Assembly: GCA_041651055.1 (NCBI GenBank)
Contig: JBAZJW010000003.1
Coordinates: 18,089-82,088, forward strand
DNA length: 64,000 nt
Source: Minisyncoccota bacterium
GTDB taxonomy: Bacteria > Patescibacteriota > Minisyncoccia > Phycocordibacterales > UBA5272
Direction of reading: 5' to 3'
The translations under genes and the position numbers were made by a program. Of the stretch, positions 5,615 through 28,725 are shown in pieces. Below the pieces are notes generated by a model. The model searched no databases and had not been told where the DNA came from. It was given only the letters and a program-made list of their open reading frames with translations. Positions within the stretch are counted from its first letter, which is position 1, and every line of letters starts with the position of its first letter.

Positions 5615-7327
5615 ATGGTAGATGTAAAAGAGATTGGAGGAAGCGTATGGACCTCTATGGGGATACCTGATGAATTCTCAGTATACATAAATAAGAAGGA
5701 TTATACTGCTCATACTGTGTCATGGAGTCTGACAAAGAAACTAAATGAGATAACAACATTTAAGGCATCACTGCTTGGAATAGATGATGATGAGAAACTG
5801 GATGTGGCTAAAGGAGAAGACATCAACATACTATTCGATGACGGAATAATAATGCAGGGATCAATAGAAAGAGTAACCTATACAACAGATTATAAGACAG
5901 AAGTAGAAGGATATGGGGATGAAGGGAAGATGCTTAAGAAGATAATCCCCGTATGCTGCGAACTATACACTGATTATAAGACTGCAATATATCATATATG
6001 TTCCGAGAATGGGGATGGGATTGAACCATTTTATCTTACCCCTGCACCAAACATAGAAGACCTTGGAATAGTCATAGCTACAATAAAGTATAAGAGCAAA
6101 CTTGAAGCAATATCCGACCTTTGCAAGGTAACGGGGAGAGAATGGTGGGTTGAGACCGATTATGACACATGGATCAGCTACTTATACATGGCATACTTCA
6201 AAGGAAGCGAAGACTCAGTTATAACATTCACCGCAGATGGAACCGCTCCAAACTGCACTGTAATAAGCTACAAACAAGATATTGAGAACTTATGTAACTC
6301 AGTCTATTATACTGGAACAATAAATTCAGTTGAGACCACTGCAAGAATAACTGACTCTTATAGGGTTACTGGTTTGAATTGGGGGGACAAATACACTGGT
6401 CTAACAGTTGACAGCAACTTATATGAGGCAATGGATGATTCACAGACTATTATGAAGTGCAAGAAGAGCGCTAGAACAGCCAATGCAAGGTTTGAAGGTA
6501 GGTATGTAAGCATTGGAAGCGATGAAGTAGCCCTGGTGTCAAGCTTCATAGACATGGGAGACTACTACCAATATGAGATTGTAAGGGATGTGTTACCTGG
6601 TTACCCGGCATCAACCCACCCCATAAGAACAGAGGTGTGTCTTGCTGCAGGAGGTCCAGGAGCGGATGCTTATGTCATTGTATCCGGGAGTGATGAGGAC
6701 TTGGCTGCTTTACCTGCTGTCGGAGTGTTAAAGATAGGATCACAGGATTATATCATATCATCAACCACCACAACTGAAGAGGATGAGGAAGGAAATATGG
6801 TTGGATTGATAAAGATGGAGTCCAGAGGATACCTCGATGAATCCCTGTATACTGAATTACCTTTCAGTCCTGAGATAACCGGTCTACCATACAAACACAG
6901 TGAAGGATCCCTCATATTCTATTGGTATGATATGGCGGTGGCGATATATAACCCAACCCATCCATACAGTGGATCATCTGTAGCCCTTGATGGATTATCA
7001 GAGAAATGGTACTCAGATACTTCAATAGATACATTGGACGGATTGGATCAAGCAGCATATAGTAAGCTGAACACTGAGACAATGAAGACAATAACAATAG
7101 AAGTATGCGACCCATATGAGATATTCCCATTGATAAGGATCGGAGATGTAGTATCATTCAACGATTCAGAGACTACTTTAACAGGAGACTACAGGGTGTT
7201 AGGATATACTCTTGGAATGGATCAAGGACAAATATCTCTTAAATACACAATTAGTCAAAACTATGTGACATGTATTGATGACCTTGCAAAGACAACAAAA
7301 GATGTCAAGAACCTAACACTACATTAA
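5615..7327 (+). CDS. hypothetical virion-associated protein (570 aa)
   Basis: long ORF 20 nt downstream of and co-oriented with the adhesin gene; no motif recognised. Confidence 0.45.
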   Translation: MVDVKEIGGSVWTSMGIPDEFSVYINKKDYTAHTVSWSLTKKLNEITTFKASLLGIDDDEKLDVAKGEDINILFDDGIIMQGSIERVTYTTDYKTEVEGYGDEGKMLKKIIPVCCELYTDYKTAIYHICSENGDGIEPFYLTPAPNIEDLGIVIATIKYKSKLEAISDLCKVTGREWWVETDYDTWISYLYMAYFKGSEDSVITFTADGTAPNCTVISYKQDIENLCNSVYYTGTINSVETTARITDSYRVTGLNWGDKYTGLTVDSNLYEAMDDSQTIMKCKKSARTANARFEGRYVSIGSDEVALVSSFIDMGDYYQYEIVRDVLPGYPASTHPIRTEVCLAAGGPGADAYVIVSGSDEDLAALPAVGVLKIGSQDYIISSTTTTEEDEEGNMVGLIKMESRGYLDESLYTELPFSPEITGLPYKHSEGSLIFYWYDMAVAIYNPTHPYSGSSVALDGLSEKWYSDTSIDTLDGLDQAAYSKLNTETMKTITIEVCDPYEIFPLIRIGDVVSFNDSETTLTGDYRVLGYTLGMDQGQISLKYTISQNYVTCIDDLAKTTKDVKNLTLH

Positions 7328-7497: not shown

Positions 7498-8808
7498 ATG
7501 ACAATAATGAAGAATGGAACAATAGTAGAAGATAGAAAACTAACACAAAAAGAAAGATTCGACCTACAACTACTTGAAAGCATAAGATCAATAAGTCCAA
7601 ACTGCATAGGAATAGCCAAAGGAACAAAGATAACAGAAGGAAAAGACACTGGGATGCCAGCATACAAGCTATTCGTAAAGAAGAAACTACCAATAGAAAA
7701 GATACCAACAGGAGAAATGCTTCCAAAAGTGCTTGGAACACAAGATGAAAGACTACCAACAGACGTACAAGAACTAGGAGAGATCTATATAACATCAATG
7801 CTCAAAACCAAAAGAAGCAATAAACAGAAGATAAAGAACATAATACAAAGAATACAAGGAATAAGCAGGACAGACAAGGCAAGACCCTTCAAGATGGGAA
7901 CCAGCGGAGGATGCTGGGACACCACCGCGTTAACCAATGGGATGACCTTCAAACACATAGAATCAGGGAAGAAGGTCATATTCACCAACGGACACGGATC
8001 AGGATGCGACCTAAGAGACGAGATGCCCCTATCAACAGAGAAAAGATACCTACAACCAGGACCAGTAGACGGAGGACAACAAGAAGGAAACGTAGTAGGG
8101 GAGAGACTAAACCTGGTAAGATACAAGGACGGGAAAGGATGGAATGACGGGATGACGGTCATGGTATCCTCGGAAGACTACCTGGATGAGGAGTTGTATG
8201 AATTAGGCAGGGTAGTTGGAGTTGATACGCTGGTGGTCGGGGATAAGGTATTCAAGTCAGGTAGGACGACAGGAAAGACCGAAGGAAACTGCACATCTCT
8301 CAACGCAACAATATCAGTAAACTATGGAAACTACTCCATAACACACCTTGGATGCATACTATTCACAGGGATGAGCGCAGGAGGAGACAGCGGATCAGTG
8401 ATAGTAAAGATCAGGGAAGGTAAGATATATGTGGTAGCCTACCTATTCGCAGGGAATGAATCAGTGACAGTAGCCCATGAAATACAGAACATGATGAGCA
8501 TATTCGGATTAGCCCTAACACAGACAGAAGAACCAAACGATCCAATGGAGAATACTTACACAATGAATGTGGAAATGGAAAAAGAAACAAATGAGACACC
8601 ACAAACATGGACAGTAAAAGGAGTCATAACAGATAAGACAACAAAACAACCAATAAACGGTGTCAATGTAAAGATAGGAGAGATAAACTGCAACACAGGA
8701 TTGGATGGATCATATGCGGTTAAAGGACTCATAAAAGGGACATATAATACGCTGTTCTCAATGAGCGGATACAAGCAGATAAACGGATCAATAGTTCTTG
8801 GAGGATAA
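7498..8808 (+). CDS. trypsin-like serine protease domain protein with C-terminal CarboxypepD_reg-like beta-sandwich
   Basis: MSAGGDSGSVIV resembles the chymotrypsin-family GDSGGP catalytic-serine motif; C-terminal TWTVKGVITDKTTKQPINGVNVKIGE...DGSYAV is a carboxypeptidase-regulatory-like fold signature. Confidence 0.45.
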   Translation: MTIMKNGTIVEDRKLTQKERFDLQLLESIRSISPNCIGIAKGTKITEGKDTGMPAYKLFVKKKLPIEKIPTGEMLPKVLGTQDERLPTDVQELGEIYITSMLKTKRSNKQKIKNIIQRIQGISRTDKARPFKMGTSGGCWDTTALTNGMTFKHIESGKKVIFTNGHGSGCDLRDEMPLSTEKRYLQPGPVDGGQQEGNVVGERLNLVRYKDGKGWNDGMTVMVSSEDYLDEELYELGRVVGVDTLVVGDKVFKSGRTTGKTEGNCTSLNATISVNYGNYSITHLGCILFTGMSAGGDSGSVIVKIREGKIYVVAYLFAGNESVTVAHEIQNMMSIFGLALTQTEEPNDPMENTYTMNVEMEKETNETPQTWTVKGVITDKTTKQPINGVNVKIGEINCNTGLDGSYAVKGLIKGTYNTLFSMSGYKQINGSIVLGG

Positions 8809-12318: not shown

Positions 12319-12807
12319 TTAGTATATTCCAAAGAACCCTTCCATGTTCCAATCCGTACCAATCCTTGGAATCTCATAAGAAACACTTTTGATGACCTCC
12401 CAGGAGACTTCCGGCTTGCAGGAGGAAGCATACATAGATAGGAAGTCGCTTATTTTAGTGGCATAGGCTTTGAAATGGTGAGGCACTCTCCGGTCATTGA
12501 ATATGAAGTAGGATTTCACCCCTGCCTTAGATGATTCAGTAAGGGCTGCTATCTGGTGTGGTTTGATGTTGGCCCAAGGGAAGTTGTCTTTCTTGCATGA
12601 CTTCAACTCAAGGAAATAGATATCTCCCCTGAATACGACCAGGTAATCACATGGCTGCTCAATGCAACAAAGCTTCTCAGACGCTCTTCTAAATGATTTA
12701 GTATCATATAAGCGGTGTTTATAGAATCCTTTTACCTTGGATGATAGCCTGATCAATTCTTGATTCACTTCTCGCTCAAACTCATAACCATGATTGTTAT
12801 TGACCAC
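12319..12807 (-). CDS. Hjc-like Holliday-junction resolvase / PD-(D/E)xK nuclease
   Basis: GYEFEREVNQEL...KGF...DYLVVFRGDIYFLELKS matches the Hjc pattern G..ER......GF....SG...D.I.....IE.KS (D...E.K catalytic triad). Confidence 0.5.
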   Translation of the reverse strand: MVNNNHGYEFEREVNQELIRLSSKVKGFYKHRLYDTKSFRRASEKLCCIEQPCDYLVVFRGDIYFLELKSCKKDNFPWANIKPHQIAALTESSKAGVKSYFIFNDRRVPHHFKAYATKISDFLSMYASSCKPEVSWEVIKSVSYEIPRIGTDWNMEGFFGIY

Positions 12808-12813
12808 TTTGAA

Positions 12814-13650
12814 TCAAATACCATTACATGATCCTCTGTAAGCGCAGTAAACACATAGCATATTCTCAGATTGGCATGGTAGAATCTCACCTGCCTTCAC
12901 TTTATCAAGCATCTCAACAGTCTTATCAAGATTCTCCATGAATAACCTTCTACCTTTCTCCTTATCAGAACCACTTATCTTAACGGAAACAGGCTTCTCA
13001 TCTCCAAAGAAAACAAGATACCAATCCCTATCAGATCCAAGACCATTATTAGACAACAACCACTCATATCCAGCAAGTTGAGTAATATAATCAGAAGACA
13101 CTTTCTTCTTACCAGTCTTCCAATCAACCTGCTTCAAATCATCAAAGTAGTCCAGTTGACCTGAAAAAGTATACCCCTTGTAGACAAAATAGAACCTCTT
13201 CTCAAGGATACCCTTAGAAAAGTCCATGGGGGTGTCATCAAGCCACATCCTTGCCTTAACTATGTGCTGTGTGGCCTTATCCCTTGCTTCCAGGAATACT
13301 GTTTCAGGTATTCCATCCGAATGTTCTTTAAGCAGTCCTTTTAAAGATCCATCCTCCACTTTTCCTTTAGTGAGCAATTGTTCTATCGCGGAATGAGCAG
13401 TAGTTCCTATCAGGCCCCTTATATGTTGAGGTGCTTTCTCTATCTTGAAATCAGTGGTATTAGACAGATAAGTGTACTGTAGTTTTCTACCACACTTACC
13501 AATTTCAGTAATGTGGATAAAGACTTCCGATCCAATTGACTCTGTGTTTGGTTGTTCATTCTTTTGTTCAATTGAACCTGTTTGTTCAATAGAATTTTCA
13601 GTCAATTCTTCAATAAGTTTTCCAATTGATTGTTTAGTTTCTTCTTCCAT
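12814..13650 (-). CDS. Cas4-like / RecB-family PD-(D/E)xK exonuclease with Fe-S cluster
   Basis: N-terminal Cys (EIGKCGRK), QLDYFDDLKQVDWKTGKK (D/ExK), QLAGY (QhxxY) and C-terminal C-x6-C-x2-C-x5-C (CQSENMLCVYCAYRGSC). Confidence 0.6.
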   Translation of the reverse strand: MEEETKQSIGKLIEELTENSIEQTGSIEQKNEQPNTESIGSEVFIHITEIGKCGRKLQYTYLSNTTDFKIEKAPQHIRGLIGTTAHSAIEQLLTKGKVEDGSLKGLLKEHSDGIPETVFLEARDKATQHIVKARMWLDDTPMDFSKGILEKRFYFVYKGYTFSGQLDYFDDLKQVDWKTGKKKVSSDYITQLAGYEWLLSNNGLGSDRDWYLVFFGDEKPVSVKISGSDKEKGRRLFMENLDKTVEMLDKVKAGEILPCQSENMLCVYCAYRGSCNGI

Positions 13651-13652
13651 TC

Positions 13653-14258
13653 TTATTCCTCAGATTCATCCAGTTGCTCTTCCGCTTTATTATTTGAAAA
13701 GAAGTCAGCTTCTTCCATTGCTTTCCTAATAGCAGAAGGTTCCTTGTTATCAGTATCGTCAATTATTTGATTTGTGAACTCTAGTATCTGTTCTTCCTTT
13801 GATTTAAGGAGCTTATTCTGACAGTTTTCTATTGCTTTCTTGAAGTATTCTTCCTCCGCATGTTCTGCCTCATTCCTTGCAGCCCTTAGAGATATGATCA
13901 AATTGGTTGTTTCCCTCTCTATCTCACGATATTCCTTCTTTAAGCTTGTTGAGTTGTTCTTTATCGATATTAATTTAGAGATGGCTGAGTCTATCTTATC
14001 TAATGACTCATCATTATATGTTATCTTTTTCCTCATTGACGAAGCATAGTCAATGAATTCTGACTGTATTACCTTCTTCCTGAACTCCATAGCCTTTGAG
14101 ATATCTCCATTGAATAAACGCACCGCGTTTTCTTCAAGGACCATTGACACAATCTCTCCTTTGTTCGGCAATTGGTTCAATGCTTCTATCATTTGTTGTG
14201 GTAGACTTATACTTGTCCCAATTCTCCTCATAGCTTCGTCTTTAACTATTTTCGGCAT
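13653..14258 (-). CDS. coiled-coil protein
   Basis: heptad-rich charged sequence; possible recombination partner of the adjacent nuclease. Confidence 0.4.
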   Translation of the reverse strand: MPKIVKDEAMRRIGTSISLPQQMIEALNQLPNKGEIVSMVLEENAVRLFNGDISKAMEFRKKVIQSEFIDYASSMRKKITYNDESLDKIDSAISKLISIKNNSTSLKKEYREIERETTNLIISLRAARNEAEHAEEEYFKKAIENCQNKLLKSKEEQILEFTNQIIDDTDNKEPSAIRKAMEEADFFSNNKAEEQLDESEE

Positions 14259-15069: not shown

Positions 15070-16236
15070 TTAAAAGGTGTATTTAGCTGATTGTACTCTT
15101 GGTTTTGCCACCACAACTCCATTAATATCCATGAGTAATTGTTCCTTGACTGCTAACTTGATCCAGAGTGAGTTGATTCGTGGTTTACTCATCTGATAGT
15201 ATTTCTCAAAGAAGAAAAATAAATCCTCTTTGGTCATGGGGTTGGGCTCATTCAATACTACTTGATACATGGCTTCCTTCTCAGGATCATCCCGCAGTAT
15301 CATCCTATTCTTGCATTCATCTCTCAATAGGGCTTTGAGTGTGTCGTCTACTATGATGTCAGGGAAAGTGCCATTGGCTGCAGCATAACCTACTGCGATC
15401 CTCTTATACAATGATTCTTCAAAGTGTGGGACTGCCATTGTTGTGTCTATGAGCTTCTCTACCTCTGAGACATCTATCTTATCAATCAATTTAGCCAGTT
15501 CATATAACTCAGCCACTTCAGCAGCCACTTCGTTCTTAACGCATTCAGAGATGGGGCGTTTCATCCTTGGGTCTCTGCCAGCTTTCTTCAATTGGATTGC
15601 TATTGTTGGAGTAGGGAATATGATTTGAATGACAAAACGCCTCAATAAACCTGATGCAGTGTCCATATTGGTTAAGCGTAGACCAGGCCATATAGTAGTT
15701 CCTATCATGGTCTCTGTGATTTCTCCAGAGCATAGATCTTTGGTTGCGGTGTCTCCGTCCAATGCTGATAGGAGATACACTTCTTCATTTGTTGAGATAG
15801 CGTTCTCGGCAAGGAGTTTGAGACGCATAAACTCGTCTGCTCCAACCATCCCTCTCTTGAATCTGCTGAAGACTCCCTTGGTTGTGATGAGTTCTCCGTC
15901 CTTGCCTGTCTTCTTGTTTGAGATGGTGCCAAGCCAGCATTCAGCTGAGAATGTGGAGCGGACTGAGACAGGGAATGTAGTGTTAGAGGAGAGGATTCCA
16001 TTGGGGCCAAGGTAGAAATTAATAGTTTGAGACTTGGTGAATCCAGAAGGAGCCATAATGCCTTCGTGTAATCGGTAATTCTCCCTGCGACCAGCGTGAT
16101 AATGGCGGTCAGTATCCAAGTTGGCAAGGTTGATAACATGGGATGCTATGGATGCACAGGCTCGCTCAGTAAGGAAGGGGAATTGGATCAAGCCCATGTT
16201 CTCGTTCTCCTGCTTAACGATTGATAATAAAGACAT
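15070..16236 (-). CDS. hypothetical protein (388 aa), possibly replication-associated
   Basis: large ORF in replication/recombination neighbourhood; no clear motif. Confidence 0.4.
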   Translation of the reverse strand: MSLLSIVKQENENMGLIQFPFLTERACASIASHVINLANLDTDRHYHAGRRENYRLHEGIMAPSGFTKSQTINFYLGPNGILSSNTTFPVSVRSTFSAECWLGTISNKKTGKDGELITTKGVFSRFKRGMVGADEFMRLKLLAENAISTNEEVYLLSALDGDTATKDLCSGEITETMIGTTIWPGLRLTNMDTASGLLRRFVIQIIFPTPTIAIQLKKAGRDPRMKRPISECVKNEVAAEVAELYELAKLIDKIDVSEVEKLIDTTMAVPHFEESLYKRIAVGYAAANGTFPDIIVDDTLKALLRDECKNRMILRDDPEKEAMYQVVLNEPNPMTKEDLFFFFEKYYQMSKPRINSLWIKLAVKEQLLMDINGVVVAKPRVQSAKYTF

Positions 16237-24689: not shown

Positions 24690-24887
24690 TTAGATGTGGA
24701 TTCCTGTATCGCTCATCTTCTCAAAGTCTTCTTCACTGATTGAGTTGGATTCAGTTGTGTTTAGACCTACTGGATCCTCTCCTATGTCTTCGTCAATGAT
24801 TATGTAATCAATGGGTTCAGTGCTTTCAACAGCACATACACAGCCCCCTTGGACTTGTATCACTACTTTTGGTTTTTGTGTGGTCAT
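24690..24887 (-). CDS. hypothetical protein
   Basis: ORF in array. Confidence 0.3.
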   Translation of the reverse strand: MTTQKPKVVIQVQGGCVCAVESTEPIDYIIIDEDIGEDPVGLNTTESNSISEEDFEKMSDTGIHI

Positions 24888-25105
24888 TTTGTTTGATTTT
24901 TTATAAGATATTCCCTGATAAGAGATCTAAGTTGTGGAACTCCAATACTGTTTAATTCTCCTGTCTTTATCCATTGTAGAAGACCAACAGTTCCATGCAT
25001 GAATGTGTGGAATGGATCAACATTATGATATACCTGATGATTTCTTTGTCTATACTCAATGATAACTCTTTGAGCTATATCTACTCTATTTTCTATGGTT
25101 GTCAT
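24884..25105 (-). CDS. hypothetical protein
   Basis: ORF in array. Confidence 0.3.
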   Translation of the reverse strand: MTTIENRVDIAQRVIIEYRQRNHQVYHNVDPFHTFMHGTVGLLQWIKTGELNSIGVPQLRSLIREYLIKNQTK

Positions 25106-25107
25106 CT

Positions 25108-25323
25108 TCAGTGTTCACTTATGTTTATGCGAGATAAGATATCTGATTCTCCATCATCTCTGCCTCTTCCATAATATGTTTGCTTAAGGTCAATGAGAAC
25201 ATCATACAATTGTTCATCAGTGGTTGCTTCTTTGATTTGTTTCAAGTAATCCTGCACTTCAAGCTCATCTTCAACACGTTGCAGCCTTACTTTCTCTTTG
25301 TGATACTCTTCAAATGTAGCCAT
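25108..25323 (-). CDS. hypothetical protein
   Basis: ORF in array. Confidence 0.3.
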   Translation of the reverse strand: MATFEEYHKEKVRLQRVEDELEVQDYLKQIKEATTDEQLYDVLIDLKQTYYGRGRDDGESDILSRINISEH

Positions 25324-25640
25324 GTTAAGAAATTATAAGGAGGCTGGTGTGAGGAATTAGCTCACATCTGCTTCATCAGTTGTTTTAATCACTTTCGGAA
25401 GCTGTCTTACACGGATTCTTCAAGGGTGAAAGGTATGAAGGTACCATTTGCTTGAAGTTCCCCATTAGACGAACCAGCCATCTTTACATATTTGATTTTA
25501 ATATTAATCTACATCAATACTACTCAAAAACACCTAATTTTATCAAATTCTGAAACGGAACCATATTTACAATGCTTGCATATCCAATCGTCAATCTTAC
25601 TCATCGTTCATTCCCTCCTTTGCAATCTGTCTCTAATGTT

Positions 25641-25745
25641 TCCCCATGTTGGGAATCGAACCCACACCCCAGGGTAATATTACCTCCCCAAAGGCTCCAT
25701 TCCAGGACTAGGGGATTTCGATCCATTTATGCTAGCTCGGCTTTG
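25641..25745 (-). tRNA. tRNA-like element (possible intron-containing tRNA or tRNA 3' fragment)
   Basis: - strand reads GTGGG-TTCGATT-CCCAA (canonical T-arm) followed by CATGGGG-A acceptor 3' strand (plus 25641-25665); no clean 5' acceptor partner found by eye; internal perfect palindrome GGTAATATTACC (25672-25683). Confidence 0.3.
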
Positions 25746-25873
25746 GCTTCCATTATATCTCGTTCTTCTATCTTTTTGCCTAGCAATTCCTTCGCTTTTT
25801 TAATTGCCTCTTGCTCGCTCTCTGCCTCAACCGTAGGGCAGACCGTTATATAAACATTGTAGTCCATTTTGAA

Positions 25874-26041
25874 TCTTATTAAGTGTTATATCCGCAGTCA
25901 TAGCATACAAGATCTTTATATTCTCCTTCCATAGTACATACATCGGTGTTCTGAGAACCGCATCTAGGGCATTTATCGCCCTTCCTTTGCTTCTGCTCAG
26001 CCGTTGAATCTGGATAGGTTTTATAACAATGCTTTTTGTTC
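25874..26041 (-). CDS. small zinc-ribbon protein (~55 aa; coordinates approximate)
   Basis: MMNKKHCYKTYPDS...KCPRCGSQNTDVC...CYDCGYNT; preceded by variant linker; below 60-aa ORF track cutoff. Confidence 0.3.
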
Positions 26042-26056
26042 ATCATTCATCCCCTC

Positions 26057-26263
26057 CTAATGGTTTATTGCTTGGGTTAGGTCTTGTTCTGAAATTATAT
26101 TTCCTTTATCATCGCTAACTACAAGAAAAACCGCTTTTATCGTTTTAAGATACTCACAGGTTAAAGTTCCTTCTACACAGAACTTATACCAAAACTCAGC
26201 CTCAGTTGCCTTCAACATTGATATTTTCCCATCTTTATAATTAATTCTCAGTTTTACAGTCAT
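26057..26263 (-). CDS. hypothetical small protein
   Basis: linker-preceded ORF. Confidence 0.4.
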   Translation of the reverse strand: MTVKLRINYKDGKISMLKATEAEFWYKFCVEGTLTCEYLKTIKAVFLVVSDDKGNIISEQDLTQAINH

Positions 26264-26266
26264 CGT

Positions 26267-26635
26267 TCATTCCCTCCTTTTAATCTCTGTCTCTTTCGAT
26301 TTTTCTTCTATTGGCTTATAATCCGGGCAATCCGACATCTCGCCATAACAATAGAAAAAGCATTGTTCTTGTATTTCACTACTTGGATTATGACACCAAT
26401 CGCCATGTAAAAACTTGCAGTCGGGACAGATACATGCAAGAGTGCCCTTTTCAATAACTCCCACCCCCTTCAAACGAGCAATCTCCTGGTCCTTCTCTTT
26501 GTGGTCTGGAAAGTAATGGTCCTCAACGCAGGACATACAACAAAAAACATACTCGTCCCCATCCGCTTCTATCACTCTGATTGCATCAAAAGAGCTAAAC
26601 ACGCCCTTGCAAGCCTCACAACCAAGTTTAGTCAT
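26267..26635 (-). CDS. Cys-rich zinc-binding protein
   Basis: CEACKG...CCMSC...CICPDCKF; ends ..EIKRRE* inside linker. Confidence 0.45.
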   Translation of the reverse strand: MTKLGCEACKGVFSSFDAIRVIEADGDEYVFCCMSCVEDHYFPDHKEKDQEIARLKGVGVIEKGTLACICPDCKFLHGDWCHNPSSEIQEQCFFYCYGEMSDCPDYKPIEEKSKETEIKRRE

Positions 26636-26638
26636 CGT

Positions 26639-26845
26639 TCATTCCCTCCTTTTTTCTCTGTCTCTTTCGATTATTTTTTTTGTTTTGTCAAGGAAAACCT
26701 CGAGAGCCGCATCCTTGACCTTCTGGTACTCAGCCAATGCCGGAGCCTCGACCTTCTGGTACTCAGCCCAGAAAACTAATACCTCTTTCTCGTTCCTCTT
26801 GATCGCATTAAGATTTTCCTTAGAAAAAACCATATTATAGCTCAT
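26639..26845 (-). CDS. hypothetical small protein with internal tandem duplication
   Basis: AEYQKVEAPALAEYQKVKDAAL from a ~30-nt tandem duplication (26715-26775); ends ..EKRRE* inside linker. Confidence 0.45.
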   Translation of the reverse strand: MSYNMVFSKENLNAIKRNEKEVLVFWAEYQKVEAPALAEYQKVKDAALEVFLDKTKKIIERDREKRRE

Positions 26846-26869
26846 CGTTCATTCCCTCCTTTTAACTGT

Positions 26870-27025
26870 TTCTAATGATTTATTCTCGTAGCCCTGCGCA
26901 CGTTTCAGAATGGCTTTATATTCCTTGTCTGTATACTGCCGTCCGCATCTGGGGCATTCTCCGATCCGGGGGTCGAAGTCGCTTTCTTCAAGCAAAACCT
27001 TACACCTTGTGCAATATGCGTCCAT
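26870..27025 (-). CDS. small zinc-ribbon protein (51 aa)
   Basis: MDAYCTRCKV...ECPRCGRQY...; stop codon TAG at 26870-72; start ATG overlaps stop of upstream gene (TAATG); below ORF-track cutoff. Confidence 0.4.
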
Positions 27026-27351
27026 TATCCTTTATGACCCTCTGTCTCTTTCGATTCTTTCCATTTTAACCCGGCACAGCTAATAATGTCCTTTGCCTGA
27101 ATCAAGTCATGATATAGCCGTGCGTTCTCGGCTTTCAGTTCCGCTATTTCTCCCTTCATCCTTGCAGCTTCAATATAACATGAATCCGCTTTAAGGCTCA
27201 TAATCTCCTGGTCCTTCTTCTTTAGTTCATTTAGAAGGCGTAAACAATCTTTATGGTCCAGTTCTAGTCCTCGGTGATTTAGCGTTCCCTCATAAAGTAA
27301 TTGCTTCCACTCATCCCAATTCTGAGAATTCAAAACTTGTGTTTTGTCCAT
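27025..27351 (-). CDS. coiled-coil protein
   Basis: heptad repeats; C-terminus ..KESKETEGHKG encoded by linker core. Confidence 0.4.
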   Translation of the reverse strand: MDKTQVLNSQNWDEWKQLLYEGTLNHRGLELDHKDCLRLLNELKKKDQEIMSLKADSCYIEAARMKGEIAELKAENARLYHDLIQAKDIISCAGLKWKESKETEGHKG

Positions 27352-27352
27352 G

Positions 27353-27559
27353 TTACTGTTTACCCTCTGTCTCTTTGGGATGGTATTTTCCTGAAACTTC
27401 TATATCCTCTCCTGATAGTCCGTTTGAATCTATCTCAATCTTATAGCGGGCAATTCTTCCAGAGTATAGTTCCATCGTTCCTGAAATTTCGGTCGCCCCA
27501 TCTCGTAGCATTTCCATCACCGCTTCCCCAATCTTGCCCGTCGTGCTAATTGCGCTCAT
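27353..27559 (-). CDS. hypothetical small protein, first gene of linker array
   Basis: preceded by SD-ATG half of linker; ends ..KETEGKQ. Confidence 0.4.
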   Translation of the reverse strand: MSAISTTGKIGEAVMEMLRDGATEISGTMELYSGRIARYKIEIDSNGLSGEDIEVSGKYHPKETEGKQ

Positions 27560-27827
27560 CGTTCATTCCCTCCTTGAACAAGCGATCAAACGAATATTAA
27601 AAAACTTACAAAAAGAAGGGAAGGTAGATGTAATAGAAGATAAAAGCCATGTCGTATTACTTAGAAAATAGGACTCAATTATATGTAAAAAGAAAAATAA
27701 TCACCAGTTAATCGCTTTAAGTTTCGCTGTTTTCTGGGGTTTTTTATACTTGGCGTAAAAGTCTTCCCCAACTTGTTTCAACTTACCTAAAACCTCCTTC
27801 TCTCTTTCTTTCACCTTTAGGGGAGCA

Positions 27828-28091
27828 TCATATCTTTTCATTTTTCAATACATCATTCAAAAGTTCTTTTCTTATCTTGCTATGCCTAGCGTTTTCTTCT
27901 TCATATTTTTTATGGATTTTTTCCATTAGCTCAGATTCATCATAATGTCTTCCTGTCTCTTTTGACAAGCATTCAAATAAAAGCAAATCAGAAAGAGATT
28001 TGTCATGATTGCATATGGAACATCTGTATTCAAAGGGATTAACTCTTATGCTTTCTGTATCAGTGTTGCAGATGGAGCAAGGGGTTTTCAT
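27828..28091 (-). CDS. zinc-ribbon protein
   Basis: CSICN...CSICNHD. Confidence 0.35.
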   Translation of the reverse strand: MKTPCSICNTDTESIRVNPFEYRCSICNHDKSLSDLLLFECLSKETGRHYDESELMEKIHKKYEEENARHSKIRKELLNDVLKNEKI

Positions 28092-28321
28092 TCTACAGTA
28101 TCTATTGAAGTTATTTCAACTCCACTGAATTCACGCTCACCATCTTCAATTCTGTTTTCATTTGATATGTCTTTGATGTTCTTTATAACAATATCAAAGG
28201 TGATAGTAGAATCGTCATATAAGTCATCAACTGAATTCCATATAGCATCCATTATCTCTTGAGGATATTGGTCCTTTAGTGAGTCCATAAATGCCTTTAA
28301 CTTAATTGTTGTCTCTTTCAT
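28088..28321 (-). CDS. hypothetical acidic protein
   Basis: ORF in overlapping operon. Confidence 0.3.
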   Translation of the reverse strand: MKETTIKLKAFMDSLKDQYPQEIMDAIWNSVDDLYDDSTITFDIVIKNIKDISNENRIEDGEREFSGVEITSIDTVE

Positions 28322-28725
28322 TGTATATGAGATTGTTCTAAATATTTATGCTCACCATACTCATTCACTTCATCAGTCCTAATGAATTTAAAATAATCAA
28401 CTGGTTTTAATGATGCAAGAATTGGAGCTTCTTCTACTGTCAAACTTAGTTTCCTACTTTTAGGTATTAAAATATAATCTCTAGTAGAATCCAAATATAA
28501 GTAAATTGATAGAGTACAGCCATAACTTTTTTCTTGTTCAAGCTCATCTATTTTCTTACGAATACTTAGAAGATTCTCACTCCAATTTGATACTGAGTCA
28601 AACCACAATATCTTTTGATCTTCACTTAGTTTTAAGTCATCTTTATATTCCTTTTTCAGAATATCTATTTTATTGATTATCAATCGTCTTCTTATAATAT
28701 ATGGATTTGAACTGTCTCCTTTCAT
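28318..28725 (-). CDS. hypothetical protein
   Basis: ORF in overlapping operon. Confidence 0.3.
   Translation of the reverse strand: MKGDSSNPYIIRRRLIINKIDILKKEYKDDLKLSEDQKILWFDSVSNWSENLLSIRKKIDELEQEKSYGCTLSIYLYLDSTRDYILIPKSRKLSLTVEEAPILASLKPVDYFKFIRTDEVNEYGEHKYLEQSHIQ

Follow-up and report, generated by a model that had tools for sequence, protein, structure and literature searches.

Organisation of the cassette array

The 64-kb window analysed here (the whole stretch of 64,000 nucleotides (nt), to which all coordinates refer unless a contig is named) is part of an 84.9-kb phage contig (European Nucleotide Archive (ENA) ERZ27247363, k141_3129407) and carries on its minus strand an array of nine short open reading frames (ORFs), joined by recurring junction modules. 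The ORFs, of 68, 108, 58, 68, 122, 68, 55, 46 and 26 amino acids (aa) from the 5' to the 3' end, are packed end to end, and the G+C content of the array is 0.41-0.46 versus 0.31-0.33 in its flanks. The contig encodes a terminase, a Mu-type portal and tail proteins. In NCBI, the metagenome-assembled genome (MAG) that holds it is labelled 'Candidatus Paceibacterota' (proteins MFA5132803-808), a bin placement that is probably not a host assignment; among isolated phages, the sole relatives of the terminase are distant Bacteroides phages, with ~24% identity.

The array proteins gave no significant functional match in Pfam and PHROGs, where weak zinc-ribbon and Lar-like matches were all that could be found, and nothing significant was returned for the cassette proteins of related contigs in the same databases. 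The anti-defence role that the original prediction had put forward for them thus drew no support from these two databases. Homologue searches with the 122-aa and 108-aa proteins retrieved only the queries themselves, and a DNA search against the INPHARED phages yielded no match. All-versus-all blastp detected no meaningful similarity between neighbouring array proteins; the best match was a zinc-ribbon CxxC stretch (E = 1e-4) in two non-adjacent genes, and what the proteins otherwise have in common is confined to module-encoded tails and one short internal motif. Since the neighbours are unrelated, the array is not a recent tandem duplication of one gene, the outcome that the original prediction had named as speaking against a shuffled array.

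Composite junction modules

The sequence that links one gene to the next consists of two separable modules and is not a single 41-nt unit. The gene-end module, E, has the form (AATCGAAA)GAGACAG(A/G), and the gene-start modules are S-A (AAGGAGGGAATGAACGATGA), S-B (..GTAAACAGTAACATGGAC) and S-C (..TTAAATAAGATTCAAAAATGG). Five exact copies of a 17-mer, GGAGGGAATGAACGATG, lie on the minus strand (25602, 26261, 26633, 26843 and 27557), every one ending in a start codon, and a further copy with two mismatches is found at 26041; the chance expectation is 0.11 and this recurrence was reached in 0/100 shuffles. AAGAGACAGAG has four exact minus-strand copies (26285, 26656, 27040 and 27365) as well as degenerate ones at ~26866-26872 (GAAACAG) and 25627-25633 (TTAGAGACAGAT). 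GGAGG stands 9 nt ahead of each ATG, and the KRRE-stop with which three genes end (58, 68 and 122 aa) falls inside the repeat.

The full 40-41-nt unit is present at junctions 5 and 6 only (Table 1) and in degenerate form at junctions 4 and 9. Junction 1 has just the Shine-Dalgarno (SD)/start half, junctions 2 and 3 combine the GAGACAG half with a different start module (..GGGTAAACAGTAACATGGAC type), and junction 8 uses a third start module (TTAATAAGATTCAAAATGG). It follows from these varied half-pairings that the linker is a composite of a gene-end module and one of several gene-start modules. The original prediction had described a conserved 41-nt linker across at least six consecutive genes, with a shared C-terminal KRRE-stop. 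Its recurrence is real, and the KRRE-stop was found in the three genes mentioned, but as an undivided unit the linker exists in two full copies only.

A census of junctions in eight contigs with such modules (see below; L024 and L118 overlap) counted ~35 E cores at gene ends, followed by S-A (10), S-B (8) or S-C (13) at distances of 17-63 nt from the core to the next ATG. Across 18 aligned S-A junctions AAGGAGGGAATGAACGATGA is near-invariant, with E present in 11/18 and S-A standing without E in 7/18. All module copies have a single orientation. A Chi-like role for GAGACAG was also considered, but no enrichment of the motif was seen outside the array. Four or five long variants, a minority of junctions (contigs L040, L067, L071, L030 and L116), have a GC hairpin inserted between E and S, e.g. 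TGCCCTCGAAGGGCA and TGCCCAGCTGGGCA.

Table 1. Coordinates of the cassette array, its ORFs and junctions (5' to 3' on the minus strand) and of other genes of the window
Feature	Position	Strand	Remarks
Cassette array	25524..27577	-	nine short ORFs joined by E/S junction modules
Junction 1, array 5' edge	27557..27577	-	S-A only (TCAAGGAGGGAATGAACGATG)
Cassette ORF, 68 aa (MSAISTT..)	27353..27559	-	99.5% nt identity in L067, L118
Junction 2	27349..27378	-	E core (AAAGAGACAGAG) + S-B (GGTAAACAGTAACATG)
Cassette ORF, 108 aa, coiled-coil	27025..27351	-	intragenic shared motif AAGGACCAGGAGAT at 27203-27216
Junction 3	27023..27056	-	AATCGAAAGAGACAGAG + S-B variant (GGTCATAAAGGATAATG); stop and start codons overlap
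Cassette ORF, 58 aa, zinc ribbon	26849..27025	-	ends in KRRE-stop; 97% identical in L116
Junction 4	26843..26875	-	degenerate E (TTAGAAACAG) + S-A
Cassette ORF, 68 aa	26639..26845	-	two 33-nt tandem units; core read RDRE
Junction 5	26633..26672	-	full E + S-A (AATCGAAAGAGACAGAGAAAAAAGGAGGGAATGAACGATG)
Cassette ORF, 122 aa, Cys-rich	26267..26635	-	weak TRASH-like match; AAGGACCAGGAGAT motif at 26481-26494
Junction 6	26261..26301	-	full 41-nt E + S-A
Cassette ORF, 68 aa	26057..26263	-	
Junction 7	26041..26057	-	degenerate S-A (GGAGGGGATGAATGATG), without E
Cassette ORF, 55 aa, zinc ribbon	25879..26046	-	phrog_2945, E = 1.5e-5
Junction 8	25865..25884	-	S-C (CTTAATAAGATTCAAAATGG); L116 identity resumes here
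Cassette ORF, 46 aa	25727..25867	-	99% identical in L116, jointly with tRNA-like element
Degenerate tRNA-like sequence	25640..25715	-	T-arm GGGTTCGATTCCC + mismatched cloverleaf
Junction 9	25600..25637	-	TTAGAGACAGATTGCAAAGGAGGGAATGAACGATG
ORF, 26 aa, array 3' edge	25524..25604	-	probably a truncated cassette; first codons resemble 54-aa gene of L067, L118
87-aa gene just upstream of array	27828-28091	-	isolated internal GAGACAG at 27953-27959
RecU-like resolvase	12319-12807	-	recombination module 12319-14258
PD-(D/E)XK/Cas4-like exonuclease	12814-13650	-	recombination module 12319-14258

Conservation of nucleotides rather than peptides

Most array genes read the core as KETE, but gene 26639-26845 (68 aa) reads it as RDRE; these are the two frames that had been pointed out in the original prediction. 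Of the 31 classified cores, 24 are translated as Glu-Thr, three as Arg-Asp-Arg, and four stay untranslated, directly behind an overlapping TGA (tTGAGACAG); copies in other frames or behind the stop codon occur on other contigs too. S-A is likewise crossed by upstream genes in three frames, giving ..KRRE-stop, ..KGGNER-stop (with an ATGA overlap) and ..KEGMNDE... The in-frame E copies use GAG ACA without exception, whereas in gene bodies GAG accounts for 41% of Glu codons and ACA for 29% of Thr codons. Different frames, untranslated copies and the invariant GAG ACA together mean, as the original prediction had supposed, that the modules are conserved as nucleotides and not as a peptide.

A second nucleotide motif, (A)TAATCAAAGAGAAGGACCAGGAGAT(T/A)GC, is located inside genes and encodes I-I-K-E-K-D-Q-E-I-A. 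Apart from its two sites in the window (Table 1), it was found in L030 (11222), L040 (527), L070 (302), L071rc (490) and L118 (9819). It joins unrelated N- and C-terminal parts in seven genes, with zero synonymous variation, and opens with 11 nt that resemble the E module. An example is the 122-aa protein, whose similarity to a 127-aa protein of L030 is limited to the N-terminal halves (44% identity), up to this internal motif. It may be an intragenic recombination joint.

Related contigs and cassette exchange at the modules

The exact S-A 19-mer had 88 matches in metagenome and genome collections, most of them unrelated single ribosome-binding sites (RBSs) of SD-using bacteria. Small-gene arrays with the same modules were present in six metagenome contigs, which we label L024, L030, L040, L067, L070 and L071, and exact-protein look-up added two more module-bearing contigs, L116 and L118; further look-ups of this kind revealed no new context. 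With arrays on seven other contigs containing the modules, the linker is not absent from relatives, the second outcome that had been considered adverse to shuffling. L070 (Ga0182027), L071 (Ga0315274) and L118 (Ga0378408) are from other projects. No family member was detected in IMG/VR, either by linker-pattern scans or by scans with array or flanking proteins, and the IMG/VR matches L001-L021, L111, L112 and L117 proved to be chance matches in coding sequence or single RBSs.

The comparison of these contigs provides direct evidence that cassettes are exchanged at the modules, in keeping with the shuffling through a common linker that had been suggested: cassettes 97-99.5% identical have different neighbours, and homology ends within the modules. 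The 68-aa MSAISTT cassette (window 27575-27356) recurs with 99.5% identity at L067 371-590 and L118 9985-10204. The match sets in with base 1 of S-A, breaks off at E followed by GGGTAAA, and has unrelated flanks on both sides. On the upstream side, the window has non-coding DNA, L067 a 68-aa gene with a hairpin-type junction and L118 a 127-aa gene; on the downstream side, the window continues with the 108-aa gene, and both L067 and L118 with a 54-aa gene. The L118 junction preceding this cassette agrees with a different junction of the window, 25634-25600, at 35/35 positions.

A second exchange is apparent in L116, which shares with the window the 58-aa cassette (window 27068-26842, 97%), there with a different downstream neighbour, and the 46-aa cassette with the tRNA-like element (window 25884-25650, 99%). 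Between these two, L116 has one novel 61-aa cassette and the window has four; the two sequences cease to match at the ATG of S-A and are homologous again from a point within S-C. In L071, a homologue of gene 26639-26845 with 85% nt identity is preceded by S-C and not by S-A. The backbone proteins shared by L030 and the window are 36-44% identical, yet their modules are near-identical.

Gene 26639-26845 also contains a 33-nt in-frame tandem repeat (AEYQKV..) at 26706-26768, with two units in the window and at least eight in the L071 homologue (L071 1-330), which runs off the contig end. As regards excised mini-circles with a single chimeric motif, a feature of the PeSLs discussed below, the short contigs showed no terminal overlaps and no circular contigs were seen. 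The ends of L067 and of L119 (ERZ27247358, equal to the JGI contig L067 plus 1 nt) and the start of L040 lie exactly within E or S-A, as is expected if the modules form branch points of the assembly graph arising from cassette heterogeneity in the population.

Predicted translation signals of array and backbone

An SD sequence was found before 0/~45 backbone genes in a 20-kb gene-called stretch (L022 gene calls), where the starts are A-rich (..aaaATG), and the backbones of L030 and L118 are likewise without SD. In the window as a whole, real ORFs preceded by GGAGG at SD distance are almost restricted to the array, the exception being GGGAGG before the 388-aa gene at 16236. The predicted pairing with the canonical anti-SD amounts to -13.3 kcal/mol for S-A versus ~-1 for backbone starts. 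Because the backbone lacks SD sequences, the statement that GGAGGG serves as the SD for the next gene is not to be taken for granted. Ribosomes of the Bacteroidia are SD-'blind', as bS21, bS18 and bS6 sequester the anti-SD, and extended SDs are read selectively by ribosomes without bS21 (PMC9976891), a parallel that we treat as a lead rather than a result.

The junctions have the anatomy of translationally coupled ones, with the upstream stop near or overlapping the downstream start and the SD inside the upstream ORF. The three arrangements are TGA 5 nt before ATG (KRRE-stop), an ATGA overlap (KGGNER-stop) and ATGG or TAATG overlaps at S-B.

Several other functions for the linker were considered and rejected. 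A promoter scan of 24800-28400 placed no site at any junction and gave counts equal to those of shuffled sequences. The RNA-processing role, as a hairpin of RNase III type, failed for the window copies, the linker RNA being unstructured (minimum free energy (MFE) -0.4 to -0.5 kcal/mol over 50 nt), and no Rfam family matched. An attC site was rejected as well: there is no inverted repeat at the junctions, no hairpin in the window copies and no recombinase among the 104 ORFs of the window.

Neighbouring features

The Pfam scan covered the 64-kb window with its 104 ORFs; the contig (85 kb) extends ~21 kb beyond it. A DNA ligase was recovered, together with a RecU-like resolvase and a PD-(D/E)XK/Cas4-like exonuclease; adjacent to these two, in the recombination module on the minus strand, an unannotated 201-aa ORF could be the annealing protein. 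Integrase, resolvase and transposase families were absent at E <= 1e-4, and the scan likewise revealed no tyrosine or serine recombinase, TnpA, reverse transcriptase, RNA polymerase or bS21.

The tRNA-like sequence at 25640-25715 had been taken to head the array; it lies at the 3' end and is below threshold. The tRNA, tmRNA and Rfam readings are absent with ARAGORN defaults and the Rfam gathering threshold, and a mismatched tRNA-Ile(aat) emerges at the 80% ARAGORN threshold only. A 15-nt match to the T-arm was seen separately; this arm is perfect, but the stems of acceptor and anticodon contain mismatches. In L116 it travels with the 46-aa cassette (L116 1056-1133). The sequence overlaps an uncalled 41-aa ORF (25601-25726) with a module-encoded tail (..ETLETDCKGGNER-stop).

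Directly 3' of the array, the non-coding stretch 25325-25530 (minus strand) has an MFE of -56.4 versus -37.4 kcal/mol for shuffled sequence (z = -4.9, 0/200 shuffles); it matches no Rfam family and has no copy in the related contigs, and it may be a structured RNA or a terminator complex at the array boundary. On the other side, the 87-aa gene 27828-28091 contains an internal ..SKETG.. (GAGACAGGAAG) followed by ATGATG, and may represent two former cassettes fused through a decayed, relic junction.

On related contigs, a cassette slot that immediately precedes an E/S-B junction of L116 is filled by a 107-aa C-terminal fragment of TnpB (L116 159-482; Pfam Cas12f1-like_TNB, E = 8.6e-8), and a perfect 10-bp hairpin, CCCCATGCTTTTAAGCATGGGG (L116 455-480, z = -3.5), follows it. 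Two similar AT-rich repeats of L118, at 6980-7033 and 8665-8717 (..TTATATAACAGTTATATAAGCATTACATAA.. and ..TATATAAGCGTTACATAATAGTTATATAA..), are possible promoters or operators of the phage, as they stand ahead of the genes at 7034 and 8718. A 190-aa protein of L030 and L040 was considered as a DNA methyltransferase, without support from Pfam or PHROGs.

Proposed explanation

The explanation that we favour, and consider somewhat better than an even bet, is that the modules are portable stop/restart adaptors which double as short-homology joints for cassette shuffling. The array would be a hyperplastic block of promoterless ORFan cassettes, each bringing a portable start module and a portable end module, so that wherever two cassettes abut, E and S together form what appears as a linker. 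As an adaptor, the junction would let every upstream frame terminate inside the module or just past the next ATG (KRRE-TGA 5 nt before the ATG, KGGNER-TGA as ATGA, KEGMNDE a few codons beyond the ATG), within a purine-rich, unstructured stretch with an extended SD or an A-rich leader, and any inserted cassette could then be translated by hand-over from the upstream ORF, independently of its own sequence. As a joint, its 20-45 nt of shared sequence would supply the homology for exchange, insertion and deletion of cassettes between co-infecting relatives. General recombination functions would be used, without a site-specific enzyme; the RecU-like resolvase and the PD-(D/E)XK exonuclease of this phage could take part.

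A number of points weigh against this explanation. Translational hand-over and homologous recombination are mechanisms that we infer from the anatomy of the junctions and from comparison. The backbone without SD, together with a terminase nearest to (distant) Bacteroides phages, raises the issue of whether GGAGG is read at all; in a host with SD-ignoring ribosomes it may have no SD function. The predominance of the E-T frame (~75%) is not predicted by a purely nucleotide function. Neither simple homology nor an SD role calls for conservation as tight as that of the 9-nt spacer GAATGAACG and the 7-nt core, which hints at a sequence-specific reader. On the comparative side, metagenome assemblies are possibly chimeric across shared cassettes longer than the assembly k-mer. 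Moreover, as L119 equals L067 plus 1 nt, the ENA assemblies are probably re-assemblies of the Ga0172380/81 samples, and the window, L116, L024, L030, L040 and L067 therefore probably come from one site. Finally, exact look-up of the flanking proteins uncovered no 'empty site' relative, i.e. one without the array.

A bolder version of the adaptor-and-joint explanation, which strikes us as rather unlikely, is that these phages run a recombinase-free, homology-driven analogue of the integron in which the junction is a specialised translation signal. In an SD-ignoring, Bacteroidia-like host, the strong SD of S-A would restrict translation of the cassettes to terminating, handed-over ribosomes or to a bS21-free subpopulation.

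Alternative explanations

The alternative that survives best, which we hold to be a minor possibility and which is not exclusive with portable adaptors, is that the modules are binding sites of a sequence-specific trans-acting factor, with recombination as a by-product. The factor could be an RNA-binding translational repressor or endoribonuclease of phage or host, a stoperator- or ESAS-like DNA-binding regulator (for ESAS, see below), or a special state of the ribosome. Such a factor would fit the invariance of the GAGACAG core and of the S-A spacer while positions around the core vary, the single orientation of all copies, the position of S-A as essentially the sole strong SD in an SD-less genome, and the selective reading of extended SDs by bS21-lacking ribosomes in Bacteroidia (PMC9976891). 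It fits less well with the 17-63 nt range of core-to-start distances and with the independent occurrence of E and S, and no candidate factor was found among the 104 ORFs.

We regard it as improbable that the shared ends are passive, functionless relics of one small gene that was serially duplicated and whose interiors then diverged or were replaced. Most copies do keep the E-T frame and similar tails (SKETE..), and the internal motif KEKDQEI is common to several genes. The interiors, however, are without detectable similarity and of different kinds (zinc ribbons, coiled coils), the modules are far better conserved than coding sequence (the shared proteins being 36-44% identical), copies in other frames or untranslated retain the sequence, and E and S modules have been recombined in all combinations.

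Slightly less probable still is a conserved feature at the protein level, namely a C-terminal peptide (..SKETE..KRRE) acting, for example, as a tag, degron or packaging signal. The 24/31 classified cores read as E-T, with K/E/R-rich tails, would agree with it; against it are Glu and Thr codons that never vary synonymously (P ~0.12 per copy, given background usage), the three RDR copies and the four untranslated after TGA, the different tails beyond the core (KRRE, KGGNER, GHKG, GKQ and RQEAIK, each before the stop) and the reading of S-A, too, in three frames. An integron-like or transposon-driven array, in which the linker would be attC-like or the target site of a dedicated recombinase or an IS200/IS605-type enzyme, is very improbable: promoterless cassettes of one orientation bounded by repeats, and the TnpB C-terminal fragment with its perfect hairpin in a cassette position of L116, speak for it, but the 104 ORFs include no tyrosine or serine recombinase, transposase or TnpA, the linkers lack an inverted repeat or hairpin, and the hairpins that exist are confined to the minority of long variants on other contigs.

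Comparison with known systems

Functionally, the closest known system is that of the promoter-early stem-loops (PeSLs) of T4-type phages, composite motifs of stop, promoter, stem-loop, SD and start that precede ORFans (Arbiol et al. 2010, PMC2839356; Comeau et al. 2014, PMC4122927), for which a role as homology for modular shuffling, bringing expression signals along with the gene, has been proposed (PMC2839356; PMC4122927). Both systems have repeated composite motifs that extend from the upstream stop to the SD and start of the next gene, in a hyperplastic region before ORFans, and in both, indels and replacements between relatives map to the motifs. The modules described here differ in having no sigma-70-like promoter and, in the window copies, no stem-loop, the features that define PeSLs; in their length, ~20-45 nt versus ~100 bp; in overlapping the upstream coding sequence in different frames; and in carrying a translational (stop/restart) signal where that of PeSLs is transcriptional. 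This phage is also not T4-like, given its Mu-type portal and SD-less backbone.

The start-associated sequences (SAS) and extended SAS (ESAS) of Cluster K mycobacteriophages have no known function, and a translational role is suspected (Pope et al. 2011, PMC3203893). They resemble our modules as asymmetric conserved sequences with an SD core, a few nt upstream of ATG and in one orientation, found only at non-structural genes of different families; the upstream stop is sometimes inside, the conserved positions exceed rRNA pairing, and there is an optional second upstream element. The sequences themselves are different (13-bp SAS consensus GGGATAGGAGCCC versus AAGGAGGGAATGAACGATGA here), the ESAS is a 17-bp imperfect inverted repeat whereas E has a direct, non-palindromic GAGACAG core, the genes with SAS are spread across half a genome instead of forming a contiguous array, and mycobacteria use SD while the backbone of this phage does not. 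Cassette exchange at SAS has not been described.

Integrons (attC x attI, IntI) share with the array promoterless, small, unrelated cassettes in the same orientation, a recurring boundary element and variable content. They differ in that the window encodes no integrase among its 104 ORFs and has no attC-type imperfect inverted repeat, and the boundary here doubles as a stop/SD/start signal, with exchange most simply explained by homology. The synthetic 'bicistronic design' that Mutalik et al. reportedly introduced in 2013 is said to be an engineered part in which the downstream SD is embedded in the end of an upstream ORF. Like translational coupling in general, it is similar to our junctions in that the stop overlaps the start (ATGA) or lies a few nt before it, and that initiation would be insensitive to the inserted gene. 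To our knowledge, coupling junctions of natural operons are not conserved as one sequence across unrelated genes.

At gene borders of lambdoid phages, short conserved 'boundary' or 'linker' sequences have been proposed as targets of homologous recombination, although examples are scarce and contested, with illegitimate recombination considered dominant (PMC3974807). The present modules are likewise short conserved sequences at gene boundaries, but in dozens of copies and with mapped breakpoints.

Implications

It has long been asked how phages acquire and reshuffle small ORFans, and the joints can be seen in few cases only. The array offers dozens of copies of a short, defined junction with mapped exchange breakpoints, and a junction that carries translational signals and overlaps coding frames extends the PeSL idea to another phage group and to another level of expression. 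The modules can be used as search patterns for hypervariable gene pools in metagenomes, and as a natural template for context-independent expression junctions. The contrast between an SD-less backbone and strong junction SDs asks whether SD-led genes are a separate translational class in hosts that ignore SD sequences. If translation from S-A is indeed restricted in the way outlined above, the cassette pool would have its own expression regime, independent of the backbone genes.

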